From an uncultured Bifidobacteriaceae bacterium (GTDB taxonomy: Bacteria > Verrucomicrobiota > Verrucomicrobiia > Limisphaerales > JADLHS01): a DNA stretch of 57,648 nucleotides. The stretch spans positions 1 to 57,648 of the forward strand of contig CAYWCK010000001.1 in the NCBI GenBank assembly GCA_964456685.1. The letters are read 5' to 3'. The stretch's first letter is position 1. Every line of letters begins with the position of its first letter. Made by a program: the position numbers and the translations under genes. The notes below the pieces were generated by a model. The model made no database searches, was not told the DNA's origin, and saw nothing but the letters and a program-made list of their open reading frames with translations. Positions 1-23,142 of the stretch are shown piece after piece.

Positions 1-525
1 GGCGAATTTGGTGGCGAATATTTTGGGGGGAAACCAGTGGGTCATCAAACGCGCGCAAGGCGGAAAGCCCATGCCTTGAACCCAGCCGTTGACGAGCCAG
101 AGCAGCCCGAGCGTGATCGCCGCCGAACTCAGGCCGAAGAAAATGTTCACCATGGCCGAGAGGAGCAGCCCCACTGCCATGAAGGTACGCGCGTTGGCCC
201 GGTCCCCGAGAAAGCCGTTGGCAAACTTGGACACACCGTAAAGCAAACCGTGCAGGGTCAGAAAAAGGCCGAGGTCGGCCTTCGTCAAACCGAGGTCCTT
301 GCCCATCGCCGGCATTGCCACGCTGAGATTCTTGCGGACGAAATAGAACATCGCATAGCCGACGATGGTGGAAAGCAGGATGCGCCATTGCCAGTAACGG
401 TACTGCCGCTGGATTTCAGCCGGGTCCGTGAGCATTGAGGCCGCGGGCGGCGCCGGGGCAAACACGCGCAGGAACGCCGGCAGGCGCGGGCGCGGGCTGG
501 CAGCGGAATCGAGCGATGAGTTCAT
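1..525 (-). CDS. glpT: Organophosphate:Pi antiporter (MFS, OPA family, GlpT-like). This is the N-terminal part; the gene runs off the left edge.
   Basis: It is absent from the ORF track because no stop lies inside the window. My own minus-strand translation from the ATG at 525 gives MNSSLDSAASPRPRLPAFLRVFAPAPPAASMLTDPAEIQRQYRYWQWRILLSTIVGYAMFYFVRKNLSVAMPAMGKDLGLTKADLG...LWLVNGWVQGMGFPPCARLMTHWFPPK. This matches the GlpT N-terminal signature (GYAxYYxVRKN ... GWFQGMGWPPCxRxMxHWW). An alternative start is Met31 at 435. Confidence 0.8.
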   Translation of the reverse strand, partial: MNSSLDSAASPRPRLPAFLRVFAPAPPAASMLTDPAEIQRQYRYWQWRILLSTIVGYAMFYFVRKNLSVAMPAMGKDLGLTKADLGLFLTLHGLLYGVSKFANGFLGDRANARTFMAVGLLLSAMVNIFFGLSSAAITLGLLWLVNGWVQGMGFPPCARLMTHWFPPKIFATKFA

Positions 526-561
526 GCCACTGGGCTGGTGCGTGAATTTGGTTCCCGGAAG

Positions 562-1914
562 TCAATCCTCGTGCCGGGCATTCCACACCAGCAAAGGCAG
601 CACCAGCGCAAAGACCGAGGCGATCACCCAGAAATGACCCACGGTTGTGAAATCGTAGATGGCCTTGCCATTCGCACCGATGGTTTGGTGGGCTTTGAGC
701 AGGTATCCTCCCACAGCCTCCTGCAAAGAGGCGCCCGCGTAACTAAAAAGACCGATGACTCCCATGACCGCGCCCGTGGCCTTCTTGGAACAGATGTCCA
801 CCGCCATCAAACCGCCGAGATAACTGACGAGGGCATAGACCGTGTAACCGAAGAACACCATGCTCGCGTAGTCGCTCCACGGATGGCCGGCCGGCACATA
901 GACAAAGGTCGCCGTGGACAGGACAAAAAAGATGCCAAACAACAGGCAGGGCACGCTGCGTTTGTGATGGAAGAATTTGTCGGAAATCCAGCCGCAGGTG
1001 ATCGCGCCGGCGATGCCGGCGAATTGCGAAATGGAGATGATCGCGCTGGCCTGCTTCAGGCTGTAGCCTTTGGCTTCAGTGAGGAACACCACGCCCCACG
1101 ATTCGAAGGCATACCGCGTCACGTAACAAGCCGCGGAGGACAAACCCAGAATCCAGACGGCGGGTCGGAGGATGACGCCCAATTGCGCTTTGAGCAGCGG
1201 TTTGTCCTTGGCTTGGTGTTCCGCGTGGGTCAGGTCGCCAGAATAAATGGCAATCGGCGGCAGACCGTACACCTGGGGGCGGTCGTACATGAACAGATAG
1301 AGAAAAACTGCGGCCGTGATGCCCAACAACCCGGGCGCAATGAAACCCATGTGCCAGCCGAAGGCGGCGACAATGTGAGCGGTAAAAATATAGGTCAGAC
1401 CCGTACCGATATTGTGCGCTGAAAACCAGACGCCATACAATGTGCCGCGTTCCTTGTTGGAGAACCACTGGTTCAACGAAACAACACAGGGTGCCGCCCC
1501 GAATGTTTGGAACCAACCACACAGCCCCCACAACACCGCGAACAGATAGAAGCTGGAACAAAATCCCAGGCAGACCAGCAAAGTGGACGAGCCCAGCAAG
1601 CCCAGGGCGAGGAAGCGTTTGATGTTCAGCCGATCCGCCAGAAAGCCGTTCACGCATTTGCCGATCATATACGTGAAATAAAACACGGACCCGATCTGGC
1701 CCAGTTGGGCGGCATCGAAAACGCCCGCCTCCAGCAGCGGCTTCTTCACCACGGCATAGCCCTGCCGGATGACGTAATACATCGCGTAGCCGAGCGTGAT
1801 CGAAAGAAAGACCGAGATGCGGCTGCGACGATAGCGGCGCTTTATTTCGGCCTCGTCACTCAGCGGCGTGGCCTCCGGACCCGTGAGGAAGAATTTGAGA
1901 ATCGCGTTAGCCAA
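562..1914 (-). CDS. glpT: Glycerol-3-phosphate/hexose-phosphate:Pi antiporter (MFS, OPA family, GlpT/UhpC-like)
   Basis: 450-aa multi-TM ORF. Motifs are RRYRRSRISVFLSITLGYAMYYVIRQ and GWFQTFGAAPCVVSLNQWFSNKERGTLYGVWFSAHNIGTG (compare E. coli GlpT GWFQGMGWPPC...[23 protein letters not shown]). It lies directly downstream of glpD on the same strand. Confidence 0.85.
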   Translation of the reverse strand: MANAILKFFLTGPEATPLSDEAEIKRRYRRSRISVFLSITLGYAMYYVIRQGYAVVKKPLLEAGVFDAAQLGQIGSVFYFTYMIGKCVNGFLADRLNIKRFLALGLLGSSTLLVCLGFCSSFYLFAVLWGLCGWFQTFGAAPCVVSLNQWFSNKERGTLYGVWFSAHNIGTGLTYIFTAHIVAAFGWHMGFIAPGLLGITAAVFLYLFMYDRPQVYGLPPIAIYSGDLTHAEHQAKDKPLLKAQLGVILRPAVWILGLSSAACYVTRYAFESWGVVFLTEAKGYSLKQASAIISISQFAGIAGAITCGWISDKFFHHKRSVPCLLFGIFFVLSTATFVYVPAGHPWSDYASMVFFGYTVYALVSYLGGLMAVDICSKKATGAVMGVIGLFSYAGASLQEAVGGYLLKAHQTIGANGKAIYDFTTVGHFWVIASVFALVLPLLVWNARHED

Positions 1915-2024
1915 GCCGCACCTCCGAGGGTGATGGGCTCAAGCCAAGGCGCCCCAACGCGCCCTGGCTTCGGTGGCATGATGATGCCGCGGCGGCGCCT
2001 GGCCGCGGTCGGCCCAGCGCAACT

Positions 2025-3554
2025 TCACGCCAGTGGATGAGCCGGCTGATCATGCGGTTGGTTGGCGGGCATCGTCGCGGGTTTCGCTCCCGATGTCGAG
2101 CCGGCGGCTTTGCGGTAGCGTTCCAATTCCGCCGCACGCTGCGCGGCGGACCAACCCAGCAATTCACCCATCCAATCCGCCGCGCGCTCGGCTTTTTGCG
2201 CCGCATCCCGGTGATAATAGTGCCAACTGGTGCGGCGGATCATGACGTCGTCGAGATGAATAGCCCACTCATTCGCCACGTAATGGTCCAGCGCGCGCCG
2301 GCTGAATTCGGGTGGCAGAATGCCGCTGAAGTTTTCAGTCTCGCTGGCGGGCAGCAACGGTTCCTGCGCAGTGCGACACGGTTGGAATACCTTGTTCCGG
2401 GGCAGAAACTTGACGATTTGGTCCACGGTTTGTTCGGCCATGAGCCGATAGGTGGTCAGCTTGCCGCCGGCCACATCCCACCAGCCCGGCTCGGGATGGG
2501 TGATCTCGTGCGAACGCGAGACGTCCGATGGCTTGCCGTTCGGATCGGCAATCAGCGGGCGCAACCCCGCCCAGGCGCTGATGACATCGGGTGCAGTCAG
2601 TCTGGCCGACGGGAAGAATTGATTCGTGATTTGCAGTACGTAGGCGATGTCGGATTCGTCCGCTGTCACATCGTCGAGCGGTCCATGATAATCGGTATCG
2701 GTCGTGCCGATGATCGTGCGTTCACCCCACGGAATCGCGAACAGGATGCGTTTGCCCTCGGTCATCACCACCGTGTCCGGCACCGGCACGCGCGTGCGCT
2801 CGACCACAAGATGAATGCCCTTGGTGACGCGCAATTTCACCTGGCTGTGCGGCAAACCGTCCGCCCACGGTCCGGTGGCGTTGACCACGGTGCGGGCGCG
2901 GACGGTGAATTTTGTTTCCGCCAACAGGTCTTCCATTTCGCATTCCCAAAACTCGCCCCGCTTGGCGTCGTTGAATCGGCAGTGGTTGAGGATGCTGGCC
3001 CCGTTCTTGGCGGCCGCGCGCAACGTGTCGAGCGTGAGCCGCGCGTCGTTGGTGAAGCCGTCGTAGTAGCGGACGGCGCCATTGAGATTACTTTCCGTGA
3101 GTGCGGGCACTTTGGCCAGCGTCTCCCGTTTGGTGAGCCAGGTGGACTTGCCCAGATTCCGGCCGCCGCAGAGCAGGTCGTAAATCTTGACGCCAATCTT
3201 CAACTGCCAGAGGACCCAGTGCTTGTTGCCGCGGTAGGTTGGAAAAATGAACGGCAGCGGATCCGCGAGATGGGGTGCGATCTGATGGATGATTTTCTTC
3301 TCTACGCTCGCTTCGTGCACAAGCCCGACCCGCCCTTGGGCCAGATAACGCAGCCCACCATGCAGCAACCGGCTCGAACGGCTGCTGGTGCCGAAGGCAA
3401 AGTCGAACTGTTCGACCAGGCCCACCTTGAGTCCCCGCATTGCCGCGTCCCGGGCCACCCCCGAACCGACAATGCCGCCGCCGATGATCAGCAGGTCCAG
3501 CGGACCTTGCGTCAGCGCGCGGAGTGATTGTTCCCGTTGTTGTCCAAGTTTCAT
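2025..3554 (-). CDS. glpD: FAD-dependent (aerobic) glycerol-3-phosphate dehydrogenase
   Basis: 509 aa. The N-terminal FAD fold is LDLLIIGGGIVGSGVARDAAMRGLKVGLVEQFDFAFGTSSRSSRLLHGGLRYL, which is collinear with E. coli GlpD. Its start overlaps the stop of the upstream HAD gene by 4 nt. Confidence 0.9.
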   Translation of the reverse strand: MKLGQQREQSLRALTQGPLDLLIIGGGIVGSGVARDAAMRGLKVGLVEQFDFAFGTSSRSSRLLHGGLRYLAQGRVGLVHEASVEKKIIHQIAPHLADPLPFIFPTYRGNKHWVLWQLKIGVKIYDLLCGGRNLGKSTWLTKRETLAKVPALTESNLNGAVRYYDGFTNDARLTLDTLRAAAKNGASILNHCRFNDAKRGEFWECEMEDLLAETKFTVRARTVVNATGPWADGLPHSQVKLRVTKGIHLVVERTRVPVPDTVVMTEGKRILFAIPWGERTIIGTTDTDYHGPLDDVTADESDIAYVLQITNQFFPSARLTAPDVISAWAGLRPLIADPNGKPSDVSRSHEITHPEPGWWDVAGGKLTTYRLMAEQTVDQIVKFLPRNKVFQPCRTAQEPLLPASETENFSGILPPEFSRRALDHYVANEWAIHLDDVMIRRTSWHYYHRDAAQKAERAADWMGELLGWSAAQRAAELERYRKAAGSTSGAKPATMPANQPHDQPAHPLA

Positions 3555-4477
3555 AAATTCTTTCCCAGCTTCGCCGCGTGGAGCTTCTCGCCGAATTCGG
3601 CGAGGTTGGCAGCTACCAGATCGGGGGCCGGCTGAAAAGCAGCGGCTTCGGCGGCGGTGGCTTCGCCCGTCAATACCAGCACGCCGAATGCGCCGGCGCG
3701 TCGGGCCATGGCCATGTCCGTGTAGAATCGATCGCCAACCATCGCGAGTTGATCGGCGCGCAATTCGTGGCGTTGCAGCAGACCGCGCAACATGCGCGGA
3801 TCCGGTTTGCCCAAGACCGCGTCCGGCTCACGTCCGGTTGCCGCCTTGATCGCGGCGATGACCGCACCGCAATCCACCAACACCGTCGGCGCGTCCGTGG
3901 GACAAATGCGATCCGGATGCGAAGCGAGATAAGGCTTGCCGCGCTTGACCCACCAGGCCGCGCGGCACAGGCGCGCATAAACCAGTTCGGTGTCAAAGCC
4001 CAGCACCACCGCTTCCGGTTCGTCGCCGGGGTTGTCGTGCGTAATCGTATAGCCCGCCTCCGCAAGTTCTTCACGCATGCTCACCGTGCCGAGCACAAAG
4101 AGCCGGCGCACCGCGGGCATCTGCTCACGCAGGAATTCAAGGGTGGCGTGGGTTGAGGTAAAAAGCTGGTCCGGCTTGGCCGCAACGCCCATCCGTTGCA
4201 GGTGCTTGAGGTAATCCTTGACGCTCTTGGAGGAATTGTTGGTCAGAAAAGAGTAGCCGACACCCAATTCGCGGAGGCCGTCCAGAAAGCGATTGGTGAA
4301 ATCGAACAACGTGCCGCCGCTGTAAATCGTGCCGTCCATGTCCAGCGCGACATGCTTGATCCGCTGCAACCGTTCCTGAAGTTCCATTCCGGTGCGCACA
4401 CCCGGGGTGGCGCCGACTGGCAGGGCGGGCAAGGCGGCGCTGCTTGCAGCTGCTGGCATGTTCATGGGAAGGCTCAT
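3551..4477 (-). CDS. HAD-superfamily subfamily IIA phosphatase (NagD/sugar-phosphatase-like)
   Basis: HAD motif I is ALDMDGTIY. LTNNSS and GKP are present, and motif IV is MVGDRFYTDM. The protein is collinear with NagD-type HAD-IIA enzymes. There are 4-nt overlaps with both neighbours. An alternative start is Met31 at 4387. Confidence 0.8.
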   Translation of the reverse strand: MSLPMNMPAAASSAALPALPVGATPGVRTGMELQERLQRIKHVALDMDGTIYSGGTLFDFTNRFLDGLRELGVGYSFLTNNSSKSVKDYLKHLQRMGVAAKPDQLFTSTHATLEFLREQMPAVRRLFVLGTVSMREELAEAGYTITHDNPGDEPEAVVLGFDTELVYARLCRAAWWVKRGKPYLASHPDRICPTDAPTVLVDCGAVIAAIKAATGREPDAVLGKPDPRMLRGLLQRHELRADQLAMVGDRFYTDMAMARRAGAFGVLVLTGEATAAEAAAFQPAPDLVAANLAEFGEKLHAAKLGKNL

Positions 4478-6591
4478 TTGGCGGCGGCCTTTGCCGGCTT
4501 TTTCTTGGAAGCCTTGTTGGTTGTTTTAACCACGATCAAAGGTGAATCGGCCAGGAAAGTGCGATACAAGGCGCGGTCCTTTGCCGCCGCCTGCACACGG
4601 GCATCCAGTTGACGGGTGAAATCCGCCGGGCGGTCCCGGTAAAGCAAGCCCAGCAGCTGGCCGGCGATAGCGTCATCGGCTTTGGTCAATTGGCCCCAGG
4701 CGCTTTCCAGGTCGCTTCCAATGCTCGCGAGGATCGCTCGGGCGGTCTCGCGCGGACTCGAGAACTTTCCATCGCCATCGTTGTCGAGATAGAGCGGGTT
4801 CACGACCGCGGCTGTGAACTTGCCCGTCGTTGGCCAGTAGGGTCCGGTGATCGCATCGCCAAAGACCCCGCACACCAGGTGCGTGTCGTGGGCCGGCAAC
4901 TTGATCGTGAATTCCAAGCGCTCCTCGAAGGGCTGATCGGCCAGTGGTTGAAGTTTTTTCTCCGCTACCGGTAGGCCATTGAGAAGGATGATTGCCCGCC
5001 GAGGTTTCACCCAGTCCGCCGCCGCGACCCGCAGCTGCACGGTCACCTGGCCGTTTTCGGGGCGCAACATTTCGCCGGGCCGGTGGCGGTGGTTCACCGT
5101 CGCTTGCGCGAAGATGCCGTAACTCACCGTGGTGTCGCCGGCGAGAAAGTTGCGGCAGAGTTCGTCCACCTGGAGGCGCGTGGGATCGTCCGTGGAACTG
5201 CGAAGGTAAGTGCGGCCCTGGCCAACCGGATTGAAAACCGTGTGCGAATCCGAACTGCCGACGCCGGTGACTTTCTCGCCGCGATTCATCACCGCGAACC
5301 AGTCGGCCAACAGATTGAGCTGGTTCGCGCGGATATCGTCGCGGTCCACGGTCGAGGGCGAACTGGAATTAACCAACTCCATGGCGTCGAAGGTGAAGGC
5401 GGTTCCCTTGGGGCGCTCACCCGTGGCGCGATTGAAGGCAAACTTGGCGAATGGATTGTTGGTCGGGTCGGGCCAGCGTGGGTGGTTCAACACCACGACG
5501 CGCGCGCCCTTGAGCCGCATGTCACTTACGAGCTTGACCCAGTTGTCCTCCTTGGAATCCGGCAGCGCACCGCCGATTGGCATGGGGAACGCGTTGAGAT
5601 GACCGTTGCGCGTGGTGACTTCATTCCCGGTCACTGGCGTGAAGAAATCATTCAGGGATTGTTGTTCCTGATAGGGCCGGTAATCGGTGTGATGGTTGTG
5701 GTCGGTGGCGATGGCCAGTTCGACGCCTTCGCCGGCAATGGTCAGCATGCGTTCCTCAATCGTGGCATCGCCGTGGCCGCTGAAGGTGACCGTATGAATG
5801 TGCGTATCCGCGGCCACAAAGCCGGTGGTGTCCACCTGCCGGCGCAACCGCAGATTCACCCGCGCAGTTTCGTTGGCAGAGACGGCCGCGGTTGCCCGGG
5901 CCAGACTCCATTCCATCCCGCGCGTGGCATAAATTTCGTAACGGCCTTCCGGCAATTCGAACTGAGTTTCCTTTCCGGTGGAATAAAAGAAACCATCGCG
6001 CACCGCGCCAGCGGGGGCACGCAAATCGAAAATCTCGGCCTTCCGCCCCTCGCTGTCCGTGAGCGTCAGACGCGCCGGCAGTGGCCGGCCGGTGTCCGCA
6101 TCGGTCACCGTCACGGTGACCGGCCGCAGCTTGAGCAGCGTGCGCAGCGGTTGGCGGTAGAGTTGAACCTGGCCAAAGGACATGCGCTTCATCGGCGCTG
6201 CGCCGACAACACTCAAGACATTCTGGCCGTCCCGCAGCGTGCCGGGCGGCAAGGTGAAATAGCTTTTCACTTCGCCACCATAGGAGCGGGGGATGGCTTG
6301 CAACGTGTGACCGTTCACCGCCAGGGACCAAACACTTGTCACCTGACGATGGCTCATTTGAATCACCACCTCAGCCTCATTCGCCGTGGACGTGAAGGCG
6401 ATTTCGCTGCGGGCATTCTCCGGTTTGTCACCGGCAGTCCGAAATTCCTCGGCGATGACGAGGTCGGGTTTCGGCAGCGCAGCCGGCAGCAACCCGGGCG
6501 AGGCCAGCAGCAGCGCTACCACTGCCGCGAGCGTGCGAAGCTCAGCGACTGGCCTGAATTTTCCTCTCAATTGCGCGCCGCGCCGATTCAT
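4474..6591 (-). CDS. Secreted PHP-domain metallohydrolase (CehA/McbA-like)
   Basis: 705 aa. It has an N-terminal signal-like segment (LRTLAAVVALLLASPGLLPAA). The PHP-type metal motifs are ADTHIHTVTFSGHGD ... LAIATDHNHH ... GSSDSH. The substrate is unknown. Confidence 0.7.
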   Translation of the reverse strand: MNRRGAQLRGKFRPVAELRTLAAVVALLLASPGLLPAALPKPDLVIAEEFRTAGDKPENARSEIAFTSTANEAEVVIQMSHRQVTSVWSLAVNGHTLQAIPRSYGGEVKSYFTLPPGTLRDGQNVLSVVGAAPMKRMSFGQVQLYRQPLRTLLKLRPVTVTVTDADTGRPLPARLTLTDSEGRKAEIFDLRAPAGAVRDGFFYSTGKETQFELPEGRYEIYATRGMEWSLARATAAVSANETARVNLRLRRQVDTTGFVAADTHIHTVTFSGHGDATIEERMLTIAGEGVELAIATDHNHHTDYRPYQEQQSLNDFFTPVTGNEVTTRNGHLNAFPMPIGGALPDSKEDNWVKLVSDMRLKGARVVVLNHPRWPDPTNNPFAKFAFNRATGERPKGTAFTFDAMELVNSSSPSTVDRDDIRANQLNLLADWFAVMNRGEKVTGVGSSDSHTVFNPVGQGRTYLRSSTDDPTRLQVDELCRNFLAGDTTVSYGIFAQATVNHRHRPGEMLRPENGQVTVQLRVAAADWVKPRRAIILLNGLPVAEKKLQPLADQPFEERLEFTIKLPAHDTHLVCGVFGDAITGPYWPTTGKFTAAVVNPLYLDNDGDGKFSSPRETARAILASIGSDLESAWGQLTKADDAIAGQLLGLLYRDRPADFTRQLDARVQAAAKDRALYRTFLADSPLIVVKTTNKASKKKPAKAAAK

Positions 6592-14920: not shown

Positions 14921-14938
14921 GCGCGTTAACGCACTAAG
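14921..14938. promoter_or_regulatory. Candidate operator, copy a: gcGCGTTAACGCactaag
   Basis: The core GCGTTAACGC (14923-14932) is a perfect palindrome. It lies in the 290-bp divergent region between the DUF1559 gene (start 14765) and the GDPD-LamG gene (start 15056). It shares TTAACGCACTA(A/G)G with the sites at 21248 and 23059. Confidence 0.5.
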
Positions 14939-15055
14939 CAAACACCGCCTGTAAAAGTTGTCAATGGTTTGGTTGGGTTCATTCCTGAATACCTATTCTG
15001 CCGTTGCCGCGATTGCTATTTGACGGTTTGTCGGCCAATGCAGTAACTCCAAGCT

Positions 15056-16837
15056 ATGTTTGGCCGTATTCTTTTCGGGCCGGTTCTTCTGGCGATCATT
15101 TGTCTTTCCGGTGCGGGACTGCAAGCGGCAGGGGTCTTGAGCATTGGGCACCGGGGCAACTCGCTTTTTGCTCCCGAAAACACTCTCGCGTCGTTTGCCG
15201 CCGCACAAGGCAAGGCGGATTTGGTGGAAACGGACGGGCGGCTAAGCGCAGACGGCGTGCTGGTGATCATGCACGATGCCACCGTGGATCGCACCACGGA
15301 CGGCACGGGCACGATTGGCAGCCAAACCGTAGCGCAGCTCAAACTGCTCGATGCAGGCTCCTGGTTCAGTTCCGCTTTCATCGGCGAACGCATTCCCACA
15401 ATGGAGGAAATGATCACCAACACGGTGCCCTTCGCCACCCCATTGATCGAGCAGAAGGATGGCCCGGCCACTGCCTACGTGGATGAATTGCGCCGGCTGA
15501 ACGCCGTCACCAACGTCATTCTTCAGTCCTTTGATTGGAATTTCCTCGCCGCCGTCCACGCGCTCGAACCCGCTGTGCGGCTGGGGGCGCTGGGCAGCGG
15601 CACGTTCACAACCGCGATCCTCACCAACATCATCAACAGCGGCGCGACCATCGTGGCCTGGGAAAAGACGTCCGTCACCCCCACGGTGCTCAACCAAGTG
15701 CATGGTGCCGGACTGAAATTGTTCGTCTGGACAGTGGACAGCGGCACGGAAATCCAGCAGTTCATCAACCTCGGGGTGGATGGGATCATCTCCAATGATC
15801 CGGCCACCGTCAAAGGCCTGCAGCAACCGCCGCCCACCAACGCGCCGGCCTATTTGGGTGACCGGCTCGTGGCGTATTGGAAGATGGATGATGGGCTGAC
15901 GAATGCTTTCACCACCACGGTCGCTGACAGCAAGGGCAGCAATGCAGGAGCGCTGGTGCGCAACGACGGCGCGTCCCACTGGTTCACCGAGCCTTTGGCC
16001 AAATTGGACGGCTGCCTGAAACTGGAAGGTCTCAATGCGTTCGTTACCCTGCCGCAAACGGCGGATCTGGACATCAATACCAACCAGTTCACGCTGTCCG
16101 CTTGGGTCCGGCTGCAAAACCTGCCGGCCCAACTCGCCGCCAGCTTCGGCGCCATCTTCGATTCGACCAATGATTGCTACGTTCTGTATCTCGACAAGGC
16201 GAACAATGAATTGCGGTTCAAAGTCACCACCGCCAACGGTCACGCCGCCCGTCCCGGGATTCCGGCAAGTTCGCTCCAGACCAATCAATGGCTGCATGTG
16301 GTGGCCACGTTTGACGGCCAGGCCTATCCCGCCTCCGGCGAGGCGGTCATTTACCTCAACGGCGTGGAGATGGATTCACACATTGGCAACGACGGCGGTG
16401 GCGGAACAGGTCTGACCGGCAATGTGAAGGCCGGGCAGTTGGCTGGCCTTGGCCGGGAAGGATGGGTGGGCGCCAACTATTTTACCGGCTATGTGGATGA
16501 TGTGGCCATCTGGAAGCGGGCACTTACGGCCGCCGAAGTTCAACAAGTGTTTGCCGCTGGGCAGGCCGGCGAAAGTCTGGGTGACCTGCTACGCCTCCCC
16601 ACCTCGCTGATTCAATTCGTTTCCGCGAGCAAAGCCACGGGGGACGGTGGGATCGAAATTGTGTTCACGAACCTGGGCTCGTGGAATTCGTTCCGGCTGC
16701 TACGTGCAACCCAGCTCGCCGGACCGTATCAGGCGGTTGAGGGTGTGAATGCGGTGGCGTTGGGGGGCGGCCAGTATCGCTTCAACTACTCCCCCACTGC
16801 GGGCGGACCGGAATACTTCCGCATCGAGGGCCGCTGA
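15056..16837 (+). CDS. Secreted glycerophosphodiester phosphodiesterase (GDPD) fused to a LamG/concanavalin-A-like domain and a C-terminal 'FYRI' domain
   Basis: Signal peptide is MFGRILFGPVLLAIICLSGAGLQAAG. GDPD motifs are GHRGNSLFAPENTLASF, ETDGRLSADGVLVIMHDATVDRTTDGTG and QSFDW. LamG-like region: LVAYWKMDDGL...FTLSAWVRL...WLHVVATFDG...IYLNGVE...GYVDDVAIWKRALTAAEV. The protein ends ...PEYFRIEGR. Confidence 0.85.
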   Translation: MFGRILFGPVLLAIICLSGAGLQAAGVLSIGHRGNSLFAPENTLASFAAAQGKADLVETDGRLSADGVLVIMHDATVDRTTDGTGTIGSQTVAQLKLLDAGSWFSSAFIGERIPTMEEMITNTVPFATPLIEQKDGPATAYVDELRRLNAVTNVILQSFDWNFLAAVHALEPAVRLGALGSGTFTTAILTNIINSGATIVAWEKTSVTPTVLNQVHGAGLKLFVWTVDSGTEIQQFINLGVDGIISNDPATVKGLQQPPPTNAPAYLGDRLVAYWKMDDGLTNAFTTTVADSKGSNAGALVRNDGASHWFTEPLAKLDGCLKLEGLNAFVTLPQTADLDINTNQFTLSAWVRLQNLPAQLAASFGAIFDSTNDCYVLYLDKANNELRFKVTTANGHAARPGIPASSLQTNQWLHVVATFDGQAYPASGEAVIYLNGVEMDSHIGNDGGGGTGLTGNVKAGQLAGLGREGWVGANYFTGYVDDVAIWKRALTAAEVQQVFAAGQAGESLGDLLRLPTSLIQFVSASKATGDGGIEIVFTNLGSWNSFRLLRATQLAGPYQAVEGVNAVALGGGQYRFNYSPTAGGPEYFRIEGR

Positions 16838-16846
16838 CCGGCGAAA

Positions 16847-17395
16847 TCAATCGAGCATGTTCGTGGGAAATTCCGGCGTTTTCCCTTCGTTGATCTCGCG
16901 GCTCCATTCGTCAAGCCGGTTGCGATTCCAGAATTTGGCGCAGGCCTTGAAGTAATCGAGGACGGCCTGCCGCTCGCCTTTCTGCAGAAGCTCCGAAGCC
17001 AGGCCCAGCTTGGGCCCGTAATCCATTAGGCGCGGTCCGGGTGTGCTCGCCGACTCCATCAATTGTCGCTTCGCCTCGTCCAACCGGCCGTCGCGCAACG
17101 CCACCCGGCCGAGCACTTGGTGGGCGACGTGTGCCGCGTCACCGGTGTTGGCGTTGCCGCGTGCGGACGTGAGAAGAGTAATCGCTTCCTGCGCGTATTT
17201 TTGCGATTCCGCCGTTTGTCCGGCCACCAGACTTTGCCGGGCCGCCTCCGCCAGCGCCGGCAGCCGCACTTCGGGGGTCGTGGCGGCCTTCAAATTCTCC
17301 AGCGCCGGTTGCAGCAGCGGATTGTCCTTGCCGGCGCCGCCTTTGCCGCAACCCAGGATCAAGCCACAGAGAATAATTACGATGAAGCCTCGCAT
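16847..17395 (-). CDS. Lipoprotein, helical/TPR-like, unknown function
   Basis: The ORF track gives 16847..17464. I prefer Met24 (ATG at 17395), which gives MRGFIVIILCGLILGCGKGG with a lipobox (LILGC) and removes the overlap with the upstream gene. No recognisable catalytic motif. Confidence 0.55.
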   Translation of the reverse strand: MRGFIVIILCGLILGCGKGGAGKDNPLLQPALENLKAATTPEVRLPALAEAARQSLVAGQTAESQKYAQEAITLLTSARGNANTGDAAHVAHQVLGRVALRDGRLDEAKRQLMESASTPGPRLMDYGPKLGLASELLQKGERQAVLDYFKACAKFWNRNRLDEWSREINEGKTPEFPTNMLD

Positions 17396-17442: not shown

Positions 17443-18324
17443 TCAGGGAATCCGGCGGGTGCAATTGTCCTGCATCCAGGCTACGTCTGGATTGTTGGGC
17501 GTAGGTTTGAAATTGAAATCGTAGTTTTGCCCCTTGATTAGCTTAGGGGTGGTGCGGGGATCCCGCCAATGTTTCAATTCCGAGTGACCGTCGGCGAACG
17601 AAAAGCCACCTGCGCCACCGTGATAAGCCGCCGGGTAATCAATGATGCCGTAGTTACCCGGCGAGGCCGCGCCGCCCAGCGTCGTTGCTGCACCTTCCAT
17701 GGCGATCACGAACATCCCGTCATTGATGCTGTCTTCGCGCTCATCCAGGAACACAGTGGTCCGGGACGGGCCCGGATCGGTCATGTCGTTAAACTTGCGG
17801 TAAATGCGCGCTTCCCCGCTGGAATTGCCAAGGGCAGTTTGCGACCAGTTCAACGCGGCGAGTTGTCCGCCGCTGCCACGGCCACCCACCCAGGCCACCA
17901 TGGACATGCTCCGCACGCGCGGCATCATGGTGCCCCGAACGTTCACGGCACTCTGGTCGGAGGGGCACCGGAAAATGCCGCCGCTCTTGCCGCAGTAGGG
18001 CCACAGGATGCCGACGCTAATGTCGTGATTAATGTCCCAGTTGTCGGCCGCCGAGCTGTAATCGAGCCAGCCATTACACCAGGCGTAGGGATCGTAATTG
18101 CCGTTCCCTTTGGTGAAAGGCAGGACGTCCCGGTTGTCATCCACATACATCTTCCACGCCAGCACCAGATGCTTGTGGTTATTCATGCAGTAAATGCCCT
18201 GGGCTTTGGTCTTGGCCCGCGACAGGGCGGGCAAAAGCATCGCCGCCAGGATGGCGATGATGGCAATCACCACCAGCAACTCGATCAAAGTAAAACCACG
18301 GCGGCCTGTCAGTTTGCATTTCAT
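17443..18324 (-). CDS. Prepilin-type N-terminal cleavage/methylation domain protein with a DUF1559-like 'H-X9-DG' C-terminus (pseudopilin-like), second copy
   Basis: The preferred start is Met17 (ATG at 18324): [38 protein letters not shown]. The C-terminus carries [13 protein letters not shown]. Confidence 0.8.
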
Positions 18325-18402: not shown

Positions 18403-21153
18403 TCACCGATGGGCCACGATTCGATAGAACGCTCCGCCTGCCGGCGGCGCCGTATCGGTGTATTGCGTCGTGGTCAGGTCCCCGGTGAGATCCACCAGGT
18501 TGTTCACGGTCGTGCCGCGTTGGACGCGGTACCTCACTGCGCCCGCGTTCTGCCATTCCAGTTGGAAAGAGTTCCCTACGCGGACAGCCTTGGTAACGGG
18601 GAACGACGGCATGGCAAACGCCTCGTTGTGGAGGATGATCAATCGACCGCCGCCGCCATTCGAGAGGCTGCTGTCGGTGACGACCAGGAAGTCGCCATTG
18701 GGCGCAAATGCCATACCGGGATCGTGGAAATCAATCTGGCGATCCGGACGCAACAAGTCGGTGAGGGGGAATCCGATCTCGCGCACGTCGGCGCCGGTCG
18801 AGGCGTCCACCGACCACAACTCGTCCTTCAGGTCATCCGCCACCCAGATTCGGCCCGTCGTGATATCCGTGGCCAAAGCGGCGCCGGAAGCGGGACCACC
18901 CAAAGGCCATAGGGTGAGTGCGTTGATGTAGCGGAGCGCGCCGCTGCCATTGATCGCCACCAAATAGCCGTCTTCACTCAGCGTCACGACTTCGCCTGAC
19001 GCCGGCAGCGCCGTGATCGCATTGAGGTTGTTCCCGAGATCGGAGCCAGACGGGGCATTCAGGAACAGATTGTAATTGGTCTGGTCAAGAGATGTTGTGG
19101 CCGGATCCACCACATAAGTTGCGTTGGGCGCATCGCCGTCCACACCGCGGTCAGCCACGACGATCCAGCCCGGCTGACCAACACTGCCAGTGAAGTTGAA
19201 AGGTGCCACCGCAACGTCGATGGCATCGTCATCCAAATTGGGGGTTGCGGAAGAACTCACGTCCGCGATGATCGTTTCGGGCACATTGCTCGTCCACGGC
19301 CACTTCAAGCGGGCGAGGGAACGCGTGAAATCATTGTTGAAATCGTGCGTCCACCAGATCGTGCCGTTGGTCTGGATGGCCAGGCCGGAGGGCCGGTCCA
19401 AGCCGCTGACGATGGGAGTCGGATCAATGGCCCAGTTGCCGCTGCCGATTTTCTTCGCTTGGTAGATGCCACCCCCGGCGACATCGGTCGTGAAAAGAAT
19501 CGTGGAGTTATCCCGAGGATCCACCGCCGGCCGGCCCACGGGACCGTTCACGCTGACGATGCTCCAGTTGGTGAAACGCGTGCCGTAGTTCGTAATTCCA
19601 TAAGGTTCACCTAGAGATGCGGGATTCGACACCAGCGATTTGACCTCGATATCATCAATGTAAACCGGCGGATGGTTGGTCCCATTGGAGGTGCTCCATG
19701 CCGCCATGAAGGTAGGACCCCAATTGGCCGCCGAGCCGACGAAGGCGGCCCGATCGACCAGCAATATTGGGTTGGCGCTGCTGGGATTCTTCACAATGGT
19801 GTATCGTCCCTGAGTGTTGTGGGTCGTGAGTCTGTATTCCTCCCAAACATTGGGCGTGTAATCGGCCGTGGTATCCTGCCAGCCGTTCAAGAAATAGATC
19901 AGCGAGGTGCCGTCCACGCAGTTGGTATTGCTTTGCCGGCGAATGCCATGTCCCAAAAGCGCGGAGTCGCCCGCGATGGTGTTGCCACCTTCCGCACCAT
20001 ACAGCGACATGCGGAGGTAAACAGCATCGTCAGTGGGATTGATCTGAACGGCTTCCGGCACCTTGGCCCACCAGGTGACTTGAACATCTGATTGCGGCGG
20101 CACGCCCCAGGCCAGGCTCGCACCCGCGCGTTGTCCGCCTTCAAGCTTGAGGCACTTGCTGCCGGAGTGCGGCGTTACAACGTCCGTGCCCACCACTTGC
20201 ACTTTACCGGGAGCGCGCAGACGGCCCTGACCAGTGCCATCCACTTCGGTCGTAATCCACGGTCCCTGGGGATCGGCGTCATCTGTGGACAAACTCCGCG
20301 CGGGATAATTTTCAAAGCCATCCGTGAAGGTGGTGCTGAGGTCGCGCGAGTCATCCACCGTCAGGCTGATATCGTCCAAAAATACGCTCCCGTCGTCCGC
20401 CGTGTTGCCTTCATTGCGCAAAATGATGTGAGAAATGACTGGAACTTCGCACCGCGAGAGGTCCGCGTTACTGAGCACCGGCGTGACCATATCGTCAATG
20501 TAAAGCGTGAAGGTTTGTGCATTTGGATCGATCACCATGCGGTGATGCTGCCAGACATAATTCAGGTGGTTGGTACCTACCGCAGTGAATGCAGCTGTCC
20601 CAGGCCCCACGGCATCGAAGTAATACAGCGCAGAAGAATTAGTGGCGCGGTCGGTGCGATAGGCGAGGAAATCATCGCCGTTGATGTCGGTGCCCTCGCC
20701 CCGCAGGATGACGTAAAAACTCTGACTGCTGGTGGGCCCGCGGCCAATCCACGCGTTGAAGTCAAATTGATAGCGCGTCCCACTGCGTGCACCGGCGAGA
20801 TATAATTGCGCCTCGCTGCTGGGCCGCAGAAGCAGCGACTTGGTGGCGCCGCCGCTGGCATTGGTGTGCCAATTTACCACTTGCACACCGGCTCCGGCGG
20901 TCGTCGGGAGCAACGCCGTGTCGTCGGTAATGTTCCATTCCGAGCCGACGGGATCGGCGTCCTGGGTATCTCCGTCGCTGGTAGCGACCGTGCCGTAGCT
21001 CTCGAAGTCGTTGGCGTAAATCGTCGCCGTGGCGGCGTGAAGTGGCGACGGTACGAGGCAGACGGCCACCGCCAGAACAGCGGTGAAAGCAGCTGTGATG
21101 CGCGCCAATATGGATGATACCTCGCGAATTTTGCCCTTGGTGGTTGTTTGCAT
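18403..21153 (-). CDS. Large secreted protein (916 aa), unknown function, with beta-propeller-like C-terminal half and a C-terminal 'FYRI' domain
   Basis: Signal peptide is ITAAFTAVLAVAVCLVPSPLHAA. I recognise no catalytic motif. Repeated strand-like segments (GGIYQAKKIGSGNW..., GLAIQTNGTIWWTHD..., GRIWVADD..., GDFLVVTD) suggest a propeller. The protein ends ...GGAFYRIVAHR. Confidence 0.7.
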   Translation of the reverse strand: MQTTTKGKIREVSSILARITAAFTAVLAVAVCLVPSPLHAATATIYANDFESYGTVATSDGDTQDADPVGSEWNITDDTALLPTTAGAGVQVVNWHTNASGGATKSLLLRPSSEAQLYLAGARSGTRYQFDFNAWIGRGPTSSQSFYVILRGEGTDINGDDFLAYRTDRATNSSALYYFDAVGPGTAAFTAVGTNHLNYVWQHHRMVIDPNAQTFTLYIDDMVTPVLSNADLSRCEVPVISHIILRNEGNTADDGSVFLDDISLTVDDSRDLSTTFTDGFENYPARSLSTDDADPQGPWITTEVDGTGQGRLRAPGKVQVVGTDVVTPHSGSKCLKLEGGQRAGASLAWGVPPQSDVQVTWWAKVPEAVQINPTDDAVYLRMSLYGAEGGNTIAGDSALLGHGIRRQSNTNCVDGTSLIYFLNGWQDTTADYTPNVWEEYRLTTHNTQGRYTIVKNPSSANPILLVDRAAFVGSAANWGPTFMAAWSTSNGTNHPPVYIDDIEVKSLVSNPASLGEPYGITNYGTRFTNWSIVSVNGPVGRPAVDPRDNSTILFTTDVAGGGIYQAKKIGSGNWAIDPTPIVSGLDRPSGLAIQTNGTIWWTHDFNNDFTRSLARLKWPWTSNVPETIIADVSSSATPNLDDDAIDVAVAPFNFTGSVGQPGWIVVADRGVDGDAPNATYVVDPATTSLDQTNYNLFLNAPSGSDLGNNLNAITALPASGEVVTLSEDGYLVAINGSGALRYINALTLWPLGGPASGAALATDITTGRIWVADDLKDELWSVDASTGADVREIGFPLTDLLRPDRQIDFHDPGMAFAPNGDFLVVTDSSLSNGGGGRLIILHNEAFAMPSFPVTKAVRVGNSFQLEWQNAGAVRYRVQRGTTVNNLVDLTGDLTTTQYTDTAPPAGGAFYRIVAHR

Positions 21154-21247
21154 AATTGACTGGGTGGTGACTGTACTAATTTTCAGTTTTGCCCCGGCAT
21201 GGAAGCGGCGGCGCTTCTAACTATCTCCGTTCACACATTGGGTTAAT

Positions 21248-21266
21248 TGTGCGTTAACGCACTAGG
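21248..21266. promoter_or_regulatory. Candidate operator, copy b: tGTGCGTTAACGCACtagg
   Basis: A 14-bp perfect palindrome GTGCGTTAACGCAC (21249-21262) lies about 95 bp upstream of the 916-aa gene start (21153) and just downstream of the GntR stop (21288). It fits the general GntR-family operator shape GT-N-AC. Confidence 0.55.
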
Positions 21267-21287
21267 TAACAGGCTGACCAAGGCAAG

Positions 21288-22127
21288 TCAATGTGCTTTC
21301 TGTGATCGAGATGCCGCCGCCTCGCGCTGCGGGTTGGCTTTGGCGGCAAAACGGTACATGTCGCCGCGATAAACCGCATCTTCCATTTCGATGATCAGAT
21401 TCCGGCCGCAGAAAGACGCCCCCTCAACGCGGAAAGCCGGTACCGGGTTGGTCAGGTTAAAATGCTTTAGTTCCTCTTTTTCCAGAATGACGGCACTGAC
21501 CATCTGGTTGATTTCGGTGAGGTGAATGCCGTACTCGCGCTCAAAAACATCATAGAGCGACTGTTCCAAGTTCTTCTTGTGGATGTCGGGACACAAGCCG
21601 AGCGAAAGATAGCGCGTCTCCTTCATCATCGGGATGCCGTCGGCGTAACGGATGCGGACAATCTCACAAATGGGCGCTTTGAGAGTGAACTCGCGCCCAT
21701 TGATGGTCTGGGTGTGGTCGTCGTCGCGGAGATGAAAGCCGATCAACTTGGTCGCCGGCTTGCGGCCCGCTTCCAGCATGTTCTTGGTGAAACCGAAGAT
21801 GCGGTTGATGGTGCGCAGCACTGTGAAGTCGCGGACAAAGGTGCCCTTGCCCTTCATCCGGGTGACCCAGCCTTCTTTTTCCAATTCGTGCAGCGCTTTG
21901 CGGGCGGTGGTGTTGCTGACCCGATACTTCTCGATGATTTCGTTCTCCGAAGCCACGGGCGAGCCGGGCAAAAGCCGGCCGCTCTGAATCTGCGAGACAA
22001 TGTCCCGGGTGATCTGGAAATACTTGGGTGGGCCGTATTTTTCTGATTCCACAGCGCTGGATTGTTCCGTTGGAATTACCGCCACAGATCCACGGTTTGT
22101 CAAGACCGCCACCGGGCCAAGTTGCAT
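21288..22127 (-). CDS. GntR-family transcriptional regulator, HutC subfamily (winged HTH plus UTRA effector domain)
   Basis: HTH region: YFQITRDIVSQIQSGRLLPGSPVASENEIIEKYRVSNTTARKALHELEKEGWVTRMKGKGTFV. The C-terminal half resembles UTRA (ICEIVRIRYADGIPMMKETRYL). The true start may lie downstream of Met1. Confidence 0.85.
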   Translation of the reverse strand: MQLGPVAVLTNRGSVAVIPTEQSSAVESEKYGPPKYFQITRDIVSQIQSGRLLPGSPVASENEIIEKYRVSNTTARKALHELEKEGWVTRMKGKGTFVRDFTVLRTINRIFGFTKNMLEAGRKPATKLIGFHLRDDDHTQTINGREFTLKAPICEIVRIRYADGIPMMKETRYLSLGLCPDIHKKNLEQSLYDVFEREYGIHLTEINQMVSAVILEKEELKHFNLTNPVPAFRVEGASFCGRNLIIEMEDAVYRGDMYRFAAKANPQREAAASRSQKAH

Positions 22128-22175
22128 TTGAATTCGTGCGCCGCCGCTGGGCTGCGTGTGATCAGCGGTTCAGGC

Positions 22176-23075
22176 TCAGGGCAGAATTTTGGATTGCCGC
22201 AGCGCAACCGCCCGCCAGATGATGGAAGTGTTGTTGGTAATGATTCCGTCCACGCCCAAATCCATCAGGCGGTTCGCCTCGGCTTGATCATTGATCGTAT
22301 AAACCCAGATTCGGACACCTTTGCTGTGGGCGTAATCCACGGCTTCCTTCGTCACTTGATTATTCCACCCAATGACGCGCACGCCGCTTTTCAGGGCCAG
22401 ATCCACCCATTCCGGGTTGAGGACTTTCTCGGGCGCGGACAGCTTCTTGCCGTCCTTGCTGGAAAGCGGTCCCAGCGCGCCCAGCACCTGTTTTGCCTCC
22501 AACGCATGGAAATCAGCCAGGTAATTCCAGTCGAATGACTGGACCACCAGTTTGTTGACCAAGCCGCGGGCCTGCAACATCTTCACGCACGTGGCCGCAT
22601 CGCCTTCTTTGCGCTCGATCAAGGTCATGTTCCCGTCCTGAATCAAATCCAATGCTTCCTCTAATGTCGGGACTTTCGTGCCCGCGAATTGCGGATCAAA
22701 CCACTTGCCCGCATCCAACTCCTTCAGTTCCGCCAGCGTCTTGCTGTCGAGCTTGATCTTGCTGCCGCCCCAACGGCTCGTGGCGTCCGTGGTGCGGTCC
22801 AGCGTGCCGTCGTGCATCACCACCAGCTTCCCGTCCTTGGAATGGTAATAGTCCAGTTCAACCAGGTCCGCTCCGGCCTTCTTCGCCAGCTTGAATGAGG
22901 GCAAGGTGTTCTCCGGCGCAATCTCACTGTAGCCGCGATGCGCAATGACGAGCGTCCGAGGAGAGTTCACGAGCTTTTCCGCCGGGGAGCCGCCATCGGC
23001 GGCAGTGGCAGTGGTGAGGGTCATAGCCATAACTCCTCCGAGGAGGAAAAAGCGAATACTTAGTGCGTTAAGCAT
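22176..23075 (-). CDS. Secreted glycerophosphodiester phosphodiesterase (GDPD, GlpQ/UgpQ-like)
   Basis: GDPD motifs are VIAHRGYSEIAPENTLPSF, ELDYYHSKDGKLVVMHDGTLDRTTD and QSFDW. The ORF track start is 23105. I prefer Met11 (ATG at 23075), which gives a signal-like MLNALSIRFFLLGGVMAMTLTTATA. The start is uncertain. Confidence 0.85.
   Translation of the reverse strand: MLNALSIRFFLLGGVMAMTLTTATAADGGSPAEKLVNSPRTLVIAHRGYSEIAPENTLPSFKLAKKAGADLVELDYYHSKDGKLVVMHDGTLDRTTDATSRWGGSKIKLDSKTLAELKELDAGKWFDPQFAGTKVPTLEEALDLIQDGNMTLIERKEGDAATCVKMLQARGLVNKLVVQSFDWNYLADFHALEAKQVLGALGPLSSKDGKKLSAPEKVLNPEWVDLALKSGVRVIGWNNQVTKEAVDYAHSKGVRIWVYTINDQAEANRLMDLGVDGIITNNTSIIWRAVALRQSKILP
23059..23075. promoter_or_regulatory. 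Candidate operator, copy c (one good half-site): cTTAGTGCGTTAAgcat
   Basis: TTAGTGCGTTAA is the reverse complement of the TTAACGCACTAA seen at 14927-14938. The second half is degenerate (AAGCAT instead of AACGCAC). It overlaps the preferred ATG of the GDPD gene. Confidence 0.4.
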
Positions 23076-23142
23076 GGTGCGACTTTGCGACCCGTTGATA
23101 TCCAAGTCAAGAGACGTTTCGTTGCTACCTGCCGGCGCCAGG

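Follow-up and report, generated by a model that had tools for sequence, protein, structure and literature searches.

Roughly the first 23.1 kb of contig CAYWCK010000001.1 carry genes for secreted phosphodiesterases, giant exoproteins, prepilin-like proteins, GlpT-like transporters and a GntR-type regulator, and the question that this locus raises is whether these genes form one system and, if so, on what that system acts. We have found that they belong to a conserved gene system of uncultured Verrucomicrobiota that extends beyond this one contig. We consider it likely that the region, in an uncultured Limisphaerales-like verrucomicrobium, is a single GntR/HutC-controlled regulon that harvests extracellular glycerophosphodiesters and feeds glycerol-3-phosphate (G3P) into central metabolism. 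The whole stretch analysed, 57,648 nucleotides, is referred to here as the window. Families were assigned by Pfam and NCBIfam model searches of the open reading frames (ORFs) of the window, and these searches uphold most labels of the initial annotation, whose gene map was essentially right; its ORF coordinates and strands agree with the ORF list of the window. We refer to a prepilin-like protein (pilinA), a 1370-aa exoprotein and an exoprotein with a phosphoesterase domain as module A, and to a 916-aa exoprotein, a second prepilin-like protein (pilinB) and a fusion of a glycerophosphodiesterase (GDPD) domain to a LamG domain (GDPD-LamG) as module B.

The strongest evidence for a common regulon is a promoter/operator element: because the same element precedes the G3P catabolic operon and both exoprotein modules, we regard all three as one regulon. 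TTAGTGCGTTAAC emerged when k-mers were compared among the upstream regions of pilinA orthologues, and the element has the form TTGAC-N20–21-TACTTAGTGCGTTAACGC. In the window the motif TAGTGCGTTAAS occurs three times, against 0.01 expected, each time at the 5' end of a unit. Copy 1, between the divergent pilinA and GDPD-LamG genes, consists of a -35 box TTGACA (14959-14964) and TTAGTGCGTTAAC (14925-14937), and the element also precedes the pilinA orthologues of six related loci (L001, L003, L023, L024, L079 and L080). Copy 2, whose -35 box TTGACT (21286-21291) lies over the stop codon of the GntR gene, has CTAGTGCGTTAAC (21253-21265) 24 nt past that stop, with the 916-aa gene following about 100 nt downstream, and it contains a perfect 14-bp palindrome, GTGCGTTAACGCAC. 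In both copies the motif stands 20-21 nt downstream of the TTGAC(A/T) -35 box. Copy 3 is inverted, with a TTGAC at 23106-23110 on the minus strand, and is individually less certain because its geometry differs from that of the other copies.

Across related genome loci the element precedes pilinA, the 1370-aa and phosphoesterase genes, HAD-GlpD, the 916-aa gene, GDPD-LamG and a gene of the sulfatase/alkaline-phosphatase superfamily. A metagenome scan by DNA pattern alone (TTGAC-N18-25-CTTAGTGCGTTAAC, with the first gene judged within 700 nt downstream) returned 102 contigs. The first gene encoded the HAD phosphatase in 48, usually followed by GlpD and an OPA transporter, and pilinA in 22, followed by the 1370-aa protein and the phosphoesterase; it encoded the 916-aa protein in five, GlpD in one and the 1370-aa protein in one, and nine contigs were too short to judge. 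The downstream gene was unrecognised in 16, which we treated as chance or unrelated occurrences rather than as regulon members; several of these are duplicates and a few carry unrelated genes, three (L088, L112 and L145) are AT-rich and ORF-poor, and three others (L117, L125 and L184) share one short ORF. An orthologue of the GntR gene (59-85% identity) lies directly upstream and on the same strand in 37 of the 102 contigs, and in 20 of the 58 that have at least 1.2 kb of upstream sequence. Positions that were left free in the search are conserved as well, with TA before and GC after the motif each present in about 70 of 75 non-identical sites, and 20-21 nt separate TTGAC from the first C of CTTAG in 61 of the 75. 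The extended consensus, TACTTAGTGCGTTAACGCTCAA, is an imperfect dyad and runs across the expected -10 region.

The GntR gene encodes a protein whose GntR and UTRA domains score 58.4 and 88.9 bits, both above the cut-offs, and its position suggests that this GntR/HutC protein is the local regulator and a candidate repressor of the regulon. Sites of the canonical HutC operator type GT-N-TA-N-AC (GGTNTANACC) are not enriched and none lies in a promoter; the conserved dyad resembles GTGCGTTAACGCAC and is not of the canonical HutC type. A near-perfect palindrome, GTGCCGCAC-C-GTGCGGCAC, at 14874-14898 on the pilinA side of the operator, lies within the likely 5' leader of pilinA; it was set aside as an operator since it is not conserved in relatives. 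A scan of the window for generic sigma-70 promoters and terminators gave matches at chance level only.

The initial annotation had left it to relatives to show whether these genes travel together. For relatives of the phosphoesterase protein we gathered the surrounding genome sequence, 77 loci in all, added further contigs carrying homologues, and scored them by tblastn with all window proteins. Both exoprotein modules and the G3P import and oxidation genes recur in related Verrucomicrobiota, with the same operator next to an orthologous GntR gene. The order pilinA, 1370-aa protein, phosphoesterase is kept in 11 of the 15 loci that have enough upstream sequence, and genes for HAD, GlpD and an OPA transporter, to which a GDPD gene is sometimes added, lie within 10 kb after the phosphoesterase gene in 7 of 20. 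Module B, in which the 916-aa gene is followed by pilinB and converges with GDPD-LamG, is intact in all four independent contexts (L080 to L083, 51-62% identity; 51-60% in L081 to L083; 51-58% for pilinB), and in L082 a GDPD-HAD-GlpD group lies 3.5 kb from it. Almost the entire arrangement of the window is reproduced in L080, and L079 holds a compact GntR-pilin-1373aa-phosphoesterase-HAD-GlpD-MFS unit, with a GntR protein 77% identical to ours, between rnpA/yidC and sigma-factor genes. The two OPA paralogues of the window, MFS_a and MFS_b, have distinct contexts: orthologues of MFS_b (78-86% identity) follow GlpD in L004, L005, L006, L016 and L080, and those of MFS_a (66-76% identity) adjoin a glycerol-1-phosphate (G1P) dehydrogenase-like gene in L013, L016, L018 and L080. 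In these last four loci the dehydrogenase-like gene (NF002022, 1.9e-48; PDB 9h4x, 3.3e-43) stands between a second GDPD type and the MFS_a orthologue, which suggests a catabolic route for the sn-G1P enantiomer in relatives. The window sequence ends inside MFS_a, and the G1P dehydrogenase-like gene is not seen in it.

The same loci show some further variation. In L013, L015 and L022 (about 1-17 kb) module A is expanded into tandem arrays of proteins that share its N-terminal domain (N-domain, described below); the array members are of the 1370-aa type, N-domain plus Calx plus phosphoesterase, phosphoesterase, phosphoesterase-only, and another 1370-like protein. Large proteins with a beta-propeller and a PF04185 (phospholipase C/acid phosphatase) domain are encoded beside pilin modules at L083:17878-21414 and L085:8780-13897, and they reinforce the phosphoester theme of such cassettes. 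The sulfatase/alkaline-phosphatase-superfamily gene lies behind an operator copy in one locus (L005:3433-4896) and upstream of a pilin gene in another (L082:5040-6536), and may be a further member of the regulon.

These observations bear on the simplest alternative, that the exoprotein and pilin modules are general surface or adhesion cassettes that merely sit beside an ordinary glp-type operon and share no function with it. Prepilin-like genes of the H-X9-DG type do adjoin large exoproteins in many unrelated contexts, the giant proteins carry no enzyme family, and 13 of the 20 phosphoesterase loci have no G3P genes inside 10 kb. Nevertheless, the same 18-20-nt dyad, at a fixed distance from the -35 box, stands before module A, module B and HAD-GlpD, in the window and on more than 75 independent contigs, together with one orthologous regulator; a GDPD is present in every module B; and 4-nt start/stop overlaps (6588-6591, 4474-4477 and 3551-3554), reported before and evident from the ORF coordinates, chain the window's genes for phosphoesterase, PHP, HAD and GlpD. 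The arrangement lies far beyond chance because it is recurrent in many species-level relatives and comes with a specific shared cis-element, and we now think it very unlikely that the modules and the operon are no more than neighbours.

The biochemical end-point in G3P uptake, oxidation and dephosphorylation, which the initial annotation had proposed as an import and oxidation module, is well supported. Both GDPDs of the window score far above the gathering score of PF03009 (132.7 and 144.4 bits, cut-off 23.6). The active site of B. subtilis GlpQ consists of His43, Arg44, Glu70, Asp72, His85, Glu152 and Gln188 (PMC7086022), and all seven residues are kept in both GDPDs, whose HRG, ExD, HD, IExK and QSF motifs align with 5t91 and 2pz0; the catalytic residues, on which the functional prediction depended, are thus intact in a proper alignment. 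The best PDB match of the free GDPD is B. subtilis GlpQ (5t91, 7.5e-31, with HR, PENT, ExD, HD, IExK and QSF aligned), and the best matches of GDPD-LamG are 2pz0 (6.1e-31) and 5t91 (1.5e-26). MFS_b matches the PgtP, UhpC and GlpT models all at about 1e-75, each below its cut-off (253 against 632 for the GlpT equivalog TIGR00712), and its closest solved structure is E. coli GlpT (1pw4, 3.9e-64), with the next family forty orders of magnitude worse (7.7e-24); it is an OPA-family member, and its context suggests a specificity for G3P. For MFS_a the best NCBIfam models are UhpC (9.1e-48) and GlpT (1.4e-37), all under the equivalog cut-offs. The GlpD-type protein also stays below the equivalog level (NF008899, 328.6 bits against 360; GlpO model, 339 against 840), and we place it in the GlpD/GlpO family without an equivalog call because its DAO and DAO_C matches are above the Pfam cut-offs. 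The HAD-IIA protein exceeds the cut-off of TIGR01460 (100.15 bits), carries DMDGT and GDRFYTD (GDRxxTD) motifs and has among its PDB relatives the G3P phosphatases 4i9f (3.5e-26) and 7po7, which makes it a candidate G3P phosphatase.

In its pathway logic this set of genes matches the E. coli glp regulon, in which a periplasmic or secreted GDPD, a GlpT-type antiporter of G3P and inorganic phosphate (Pi) and GlpD are co-regulated through a dyad operator, as they are predicted to be here. The two differ in that E. coli uses the DeoR-type repressor GlpR, whereas the regulator here is of the GntR/HutC type; in that an HAD-IIA gene is the first gene of the core operon; in the presence of two OPA paralogues and of large extracellular modules that have no counterpart in E. 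coli; and in the distance of the transporters and GlpD from the NCBIfam equivalog cut-offs.

The phosphoesterase protein of module A would add a second activity to that of the GDPDs. It was first listed as a 1043-aa exoprotein with a metallophosphoesterase domain. The length does not hold, as the real start is an internal Met (9617) that gives 1009 aa, as in its 99% identical twin P0001, which came from a homology search; exact-sequence look-ups of the 1043-aa and 1009-aa products returned nothing. Nor does the protein have a Pfam match of its own to Metallophos (PF00149) at E<=1. What stands is the presence of phosphoesterase motifs and of matches in homologues, with Metallophos matched by 5 of 17 orthologues and by 12 of 24 cross-phylum relatives of the domain (best 2.9e-10) and Pur_ac_phosph_N by 5 of those 24, and it is because of these motifs and matches that we regard the protein as a phosphoesterase. 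From its N-terminus the protein consists of a signal peptide, the N-domain, the metallophosphoesterase domain flanked by Fn3, a Big_9 Ig domain, a TSP3-like repeat and a C-terminal domain; the repeat also gives a weak match to the Amuc_1099 family.

The family of the phosphoesterase domain (aa ~386-775) spans Verrucomicrobiota, Acidobacteriota, Bacteroidota, Chloroflexota and other phyla. Its alignment bears out only part of the expected catalytic set: GD, GNHD, H606 and GH641 are invariant, and an invariant Glu follows the GH, but the canonical ligand motifs are replaced across phyla, DxH by DTQ and GHxH by GHV(T)GE. Like purple-acid-phosphatase-like enzymes, the protein has an Fn3-like domain N-terminal to a core with GD, GNHD, H and GH, and its relatives match Pur_ac_phosph_N and Metallophos; unlike purple acid phosphatases, it lacks the Tyr ligand and has the two substituted motifs. 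By its sequence the domain is probably a divergent, purple-acid-phosphatase-like one whose first metal site is changed by the substitution of two canonical His ligands, and since this substitution holds across phyla it suggests that another metal or another chemistry is involved. Sequence and profile searches of the phosphoesterase against solved structures gave matches to Ig domains or nothing, and an hhalign comparison with one bona fide Metallophos protein (from L083) gave a probability of 8.6%, confined to the region of motif IV. Another metallophosphoesterase, Amuc_1901 of Akkermansia, has been characterised separately.

Between the phosphoesterase and HAD genes the window has a gene for a PHP-type protein, annotated at the outset as a secreted PHP metallohydrolase and as part of the system. 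The label is sound in that the CehA/McbA model is clearly exceeded (NF038032, 140.7 bits against 80), and less so in that Pfam PHP stays below its cut-off (17 bits against 26.4). Apart from the window, however, only a 99%-identical twin contig (L078) carries the gene, and none of the remaining related loci has it, so that we take it to be a recent lineage-specific insertion and have rejected it as a core component of the conserved system.

The phosphoesterase and the CehA/McbA enzyme have no assigned substrates, and NagD-type HAD-IIA proteins include nucleotide and sugar-phosphate phosphatases. It could therefore be argued that the system is aimed mainly at phosphoesters of other kinds, for example those of extracellular nucleic acids or phosphorylated glycans, with the phosphoesterase and PHP proteins as nucleases or phosphatases, the HAD-IIA protein as a nucleotidase and G3P as one of several outputs; the PF04185 phosphoesterases and the sulfatase/alkaline-phosphatase-superfamily gene that relatives have in or beside the same modules could be read in the same way. 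We give this little credence: HAD-GlpD-OPA transporter is the commonest operon behind the operator (48 of the 102 contigs), every module B has a GDPD, and the conserved set contains no nucleoside or sugar catabolic genes.

The giant exoproteins can be described by their domains. Both the 1370-aa and the 916-aa protein have signal peptides, and Pfam and NCBIfam searches found no enzyme family in either. The 1370-aa protein comprises the N-domain, three Calx-beta-like repeats, two DNRLRE domains and a C-terminal domain. The N-domain, of about 330 aa, is common to the 1009-aa and 1370-aa proteins (46% identity, E 1e-74). Its AlphaFold2 (AF2) model is all-beta (mean predicted local distance difference test score, pLDDT, 89; predicted template modelling score, pTM, 0.89). 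Foldseek matched no PDB structure at E<1e-3, with single-chain C1q-type trimers ranking highest, and structural analogues were found in cyanophage tail-fibre proteins (1.6e-8), with many matches of about 110 residues on tail-fibre tip domains. From the model we read the N-domain as several jelly-roll subdomains with a binding-type fold, and it appears to be an undescribed domain family. The 916-aa protein matches no Pfam or NCBIfam family at all; its AF2 model (pLDDT 86) has two beta-sandwiches, a beta-propeller of the YncE/Drp35/NHL type and a small C-terminal sandwich, with Foldseek matches to YncE, Drp35, NHL and BACOVA_00264-type propellers. All four large secreted proteins end in a related C-terminal domain, a beta-sandwich of 70-90 aa with a terminal [FY][YF][RK]; a small hidden Markov model of this domain matched no other ORF of the window, and the domain could serve lineage-specific sorting or anchoring.

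PilinA and pilinB were originally labelled DUF1559 proteins. This label is not supported by Pfam, since their DUF1559 (SBP_bac_10) scores, 20.1 and 19.3 bits, are below the gathering score of 23.3, and it is the prepilin N_methyl model that they exceed (32.4 and 34.6 bits, cut-off 21.2); both also carry the H-X9/10-DG C-terminus typical of the Planctomycetes-Verrucomicrobia-Chlamydiae (PVC) bacteria. In the cleavage/methylation N-terminus and the H-X9-DG-type C-terminus they resemble the PVC expansions of H-X9-DG/DUF1559 proteins and the Akkermansia Amuc_1098-1102 pilus-like cluster. Unlike those families, which have no established function, the two members described here stand in a defined regulon beside phosphodiesterases, do not reach the DUF1559 model and have no assembly genes with them in the window. 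The small lipoprotein gene of the locus, with its real start at 17395, is not conserved in relatives and is present only in the twin L078.

The predicted binding-type folds would be consistent with a part for the giant and pilin-like proteins in substrate capture. It has occurred to us that the prepilin-like H-X9-DG proteins may build or prime a surface fibre on which exoproteins and enzymes dock through the N-domain, the C-terminal domain or both, a 'pilus-tethered enzyme display', and that in relatives the regulon also pairs GlpD with a catabolic G1P dehydrogenase and a second antiporter; we regard this combined proposal as speculative and rather doubtful. If it were true, the hugely expanded pilin-like families of PVC bacteria would gain a function in a previously unrecognised enzyme-display system, and both enantiomers of glycerol phosphate, as found in wall and lipoteichoic acids or in archaeal lipids, could be consumed.

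A more specific proposal for the substrate is that the system depolymerises the poly(glycerol-phosphate) teichoic acids of Gram-positive necromass, with the phosphoesterase acting as an endo-enzyme in the manner of PhoD, the GDPDs as exo-enzymes in the manner of GlpQ, and the giant proteins binding the polymer. Among solved structures the free GDPD comes closest to B. subtilis GlpQ, an enzyme that trims teichoic acid, the pairing of exo-acting GlpQ with endo-acting PhoD provides a precedent (PMC7086022), and the LamG, Calx-beta, DNRLRE, propeller and tail-fibre-like domains fit the binding of a polymer; in addition, the second GDPD type and the G1P dehydrogenase-like gene of four relatives would allow use of the sn-G1P enantiomer of lipoteichoic acid. 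On the other hand, GDPDs of this type also cleave small deacylated phospholipids, the LamG fusion matches 2pz0 equally well, the phosphoesterase falls outside the PhoD family, and no G1P dehydrogenase gene is visible in the window. We therefore hold a teichoic acid substrate to be possible and put it forward tentatively. The system resembles the B. subtilis GlpQ/PhoD teichoicases in that a secreted GDPD sharing the GlpQ active-site residues has a second secreted phosphodiesterase as its partner, and in that the G3P set free is a nutrient (PMC7086022). The B. subtilis enzymes belong to a phosphate-starvation system under PhoPR, whereas here a diderm verrucomicrobium apparently uses a GntR/HutC-linked operator; also unlike B. 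subtilis, the second enzyme here is not of the PhoD family, one GDPD is fused to LamG, and giant accessory and prepilin-like proteins are encoded inside the units.

For the broader reading that we favour, a regulon for the harvest of extracellular glycerophosphodiesters, whether polymers or small diesters, the following mechanism may be envisaged. The two secreted modules would act outside the cell, where module B and the free GDPD would release sn-glycerol-3-phosphate from glycerophosphodiester ends and module A would contribute a second phosphoester-cleaving activity through its purple-acid-phosphatase-like protein. The N- and C-terminal domains may bind substrate, tether the proteins to a structure made of or with the prepilin-like proteins, or both. 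G3P would enter through the GlpT-like Pi antiporters and be oxidised by GlpD to dihydroxyacetone phosphate, and the HAD-IIA phosphatase would convert part of the G3P to glycerol and Pi, thus renewing the Pi needed for antiport. The dyad TACTTAGTGCGTTAACGC, lying across the -10 region of each promoter, is the predicted binding site of the GntR protein, which would occlude the promoter until an organophosphate sets it free; the likeliest effector is G3P or a diester.

Several points weigh against the favoured reading. Beside the phosphoesterase loci without nearby G3P genes mentioned above, the phosphoesterase could be inactive or act on something unrelated, because the canonical histidines of DxH and GHxH are missing and no solved relative was found by sequence. 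The window has no genes for pilus or type II secretion assembly (ATPase, platform, secretin), and the pairing of regulator and operator is a candidate one, based only on proximity. Finally, no pst or pho genes are found nearby in the window, and the combination of GlpT-type antiport and GlpD looks like a carbon and energy pathway rather than classic Pho-type scavenging of phosphorus, which suggests that carbon and energy matter no less than phosphorus does.

The locus had also been called a 'PUL-style machine', after the polysaccharide utilisation loci (PULs) of Bacteroidota. The coupling of genes for depolymerases, transport and catabolism stands, and the logic is shared, in that a single regulon devoted to one substrate supplies binding proteins and enzymes for the cell surface as well as import and catabolism; the Foldseek matches of the 916-aa protein include a Bacteroides auxiliary nutrient-binding propeller protein. 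In other respects this is an analogy only: Pfam and NCBIfam searches found no SusC/SusD pair and no TonB-dependent transporter among the ORFs of the locus, the presumed target is a phosphodiester rather than a glycosidic bond, and the pilin-like proteins are specific to this lineage.

The features of the locus are collected in Table 1. The right border of the system lies at about 23.1 kb, since the remaining window (26-57 kb) consists of unrelated housekeeping genes, and the left border is beyond window position 1.

Table 1. Features of the locus in the window, with protein domains and, from related loci, the G1P dehydrogenase-like genes
Feature	Position	Strand	Basis
MFS_a, OPA paralogue truncated at the window edge, N-terminal part only	1..435	-	MFS_1 2e-19
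MFS_b, GlpT-like OPA transporter	562..1914	-	MFS_1 1.9e-43
GlpD/GlpO-type glycerol-3-phosphate dehydrogenase/oxidase	2025..3554	-	DAO 1.3e-54, DAO_C 2.1e-9
HAD-IIA (NagD/PGP-type) phosphatase, candidate G3P phosphatase	3551..4477	-	TIGR01460 121.3 bits
CehA/McbA-family PHP-type metallohydrolase, predicted secreted	4474..6591	-	NF038032 6.8e-41
1009-aa exoprotein, divergent metallophosphoesterase domain	6588..9617	-	Motifs and homologues; Big_9 3.8e-11
1370-aa exoprotein	9754..13866	-	DNRLRE 2.5e-16; N-domain similarity to 1009-aa protein
PilinA, prepilin-type cleavage/methylation N-terminus, C-terminal H-X10-DG	13941..14759	-	N_methyl 5.9e-8
Promoter/operator copy 1	14925..14964	-	pilinA/GDPD-LamG divergent intergenic region
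GDPD-LamG fusion, predicted secreted, shared C-terminal domain	15056..16837	+	GDPD 3.2e-38, Laminin_G_3 7e-27
Small helical lipoprotein, lipobox ILGC	16847..17395	-	Sequence; no family match
PilinB, prepilin-type, H-X9-DG at residue 251	17443..18324	-	N_methyl 1.2e-8
916-aa exoprotein, beta-sandwiches, beta-propeller and shared C-terminal domain	18403..21153	-	AF2 model, Foldseek
Promoter/operator copy 2	21249..21291	-	-35 overlaps GntR stop
GntR/HutC-type regulator, winged helix-turn-helix and UTRA effector domain	21288..22127	-	GntR 5.7e-16, UTRA 3.4e-25
GDPD (GlpQ-like), predicted secreted	22176..23075	-	GDPD 8.6e-42; ORF as listed reaches 23105
Operator copy 3, inverted, over GDPD codons 1-6	23060..23072	+	TTAGTGCGTTAAG
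N-domain, 1009-aa protein	8463-9500		46% identity, E 1e-74
N-domain, 1370-aa protein	12607-13734		46% identity, E 1e-74
Fn3-flanked metallophosphoesterase, 1009-aa protein	7293-8462		
Big_9 Ig domain, 1009-aa protein	7023-7286		
Shared C-terminal domain, 1009-aa protein	6591-6875		Sequence comparison
Shared C-terminal domain, 1370-aa protein	9757-10030		Sequence comparison
Shared C-terminal domain, GDPD-LamG	15056-16837 (last ~90 codons)		Sequence comparison
Shared C-terminal domain, 916-aa protein	18406-18680		Sequence comparison
G1P dehydrogenase-like gene	L080:16548-17936		
G1P dehydrogenase-like gene	L016:16827-18185		
G1P dehydrogenase-like gene	L013:14216-15574		
G1P dehydrogenase-like gene	L018:5653-7011		

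Next to the system, on the same strand, lie two M16 (insulinase-type) peptidase genes (23143-26293), which stop 37 bp ahead of the GDPD ORF as listed (23105), with a TTGAC box inside the gap; no relative links M16 genes to the system, and the pair was dropped as a candidate member. Farther along the window there is a patch of low G+C content at 40000-44200 (0.48-0.50, against about 0.59 elsewhere) that spans pgi and mnmG/gidA, and a CHASE2-TIR fusion at 44464-46077 (CHASE2 3.4e-26, TIR_2 3e-13), which may be of a signalling or defence type.

The initial annotation knew of no such combined locus in PVC bacteria, and our literature searches likewise found no description of one. The pathway logic itself is already known from the E. 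coli glp regulon and the B. subtilis GlpQ/PhoD teichoicases. What is new is the architecture, in which prepilin-like proteins and giant exoproteins with two uncharacterised shared domains are joined to phosphodiesterases; new as well are the pairing of regulator and operator, the family of phosphoesterases with replaced ligands, and the taxon. The regulon brings to light these two domains (the N-domain and the C-terminal domain) and a metallophosphoesterase family with substituted ligands that spans several phyla, and its defined operator and candidate regulator are now open to direct assay. It also places two members of the PVC prepilin-like (H-X9-DG/DUF1559-type) families in a substrate-specific regulon near identifiable enzymes, so that their function becomes experimentally approachable. 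Soils, sediments and sludge contain much organic phosphorus and carbon in the form of phosphodiesters such as teichoic acids and phospholipid head groups. Verrucomicrobiota are abundant in these habitats and mostly uncultured, and the regulon described here offers a concrete pathway by which these bacteria may use that phosphodiester pool.

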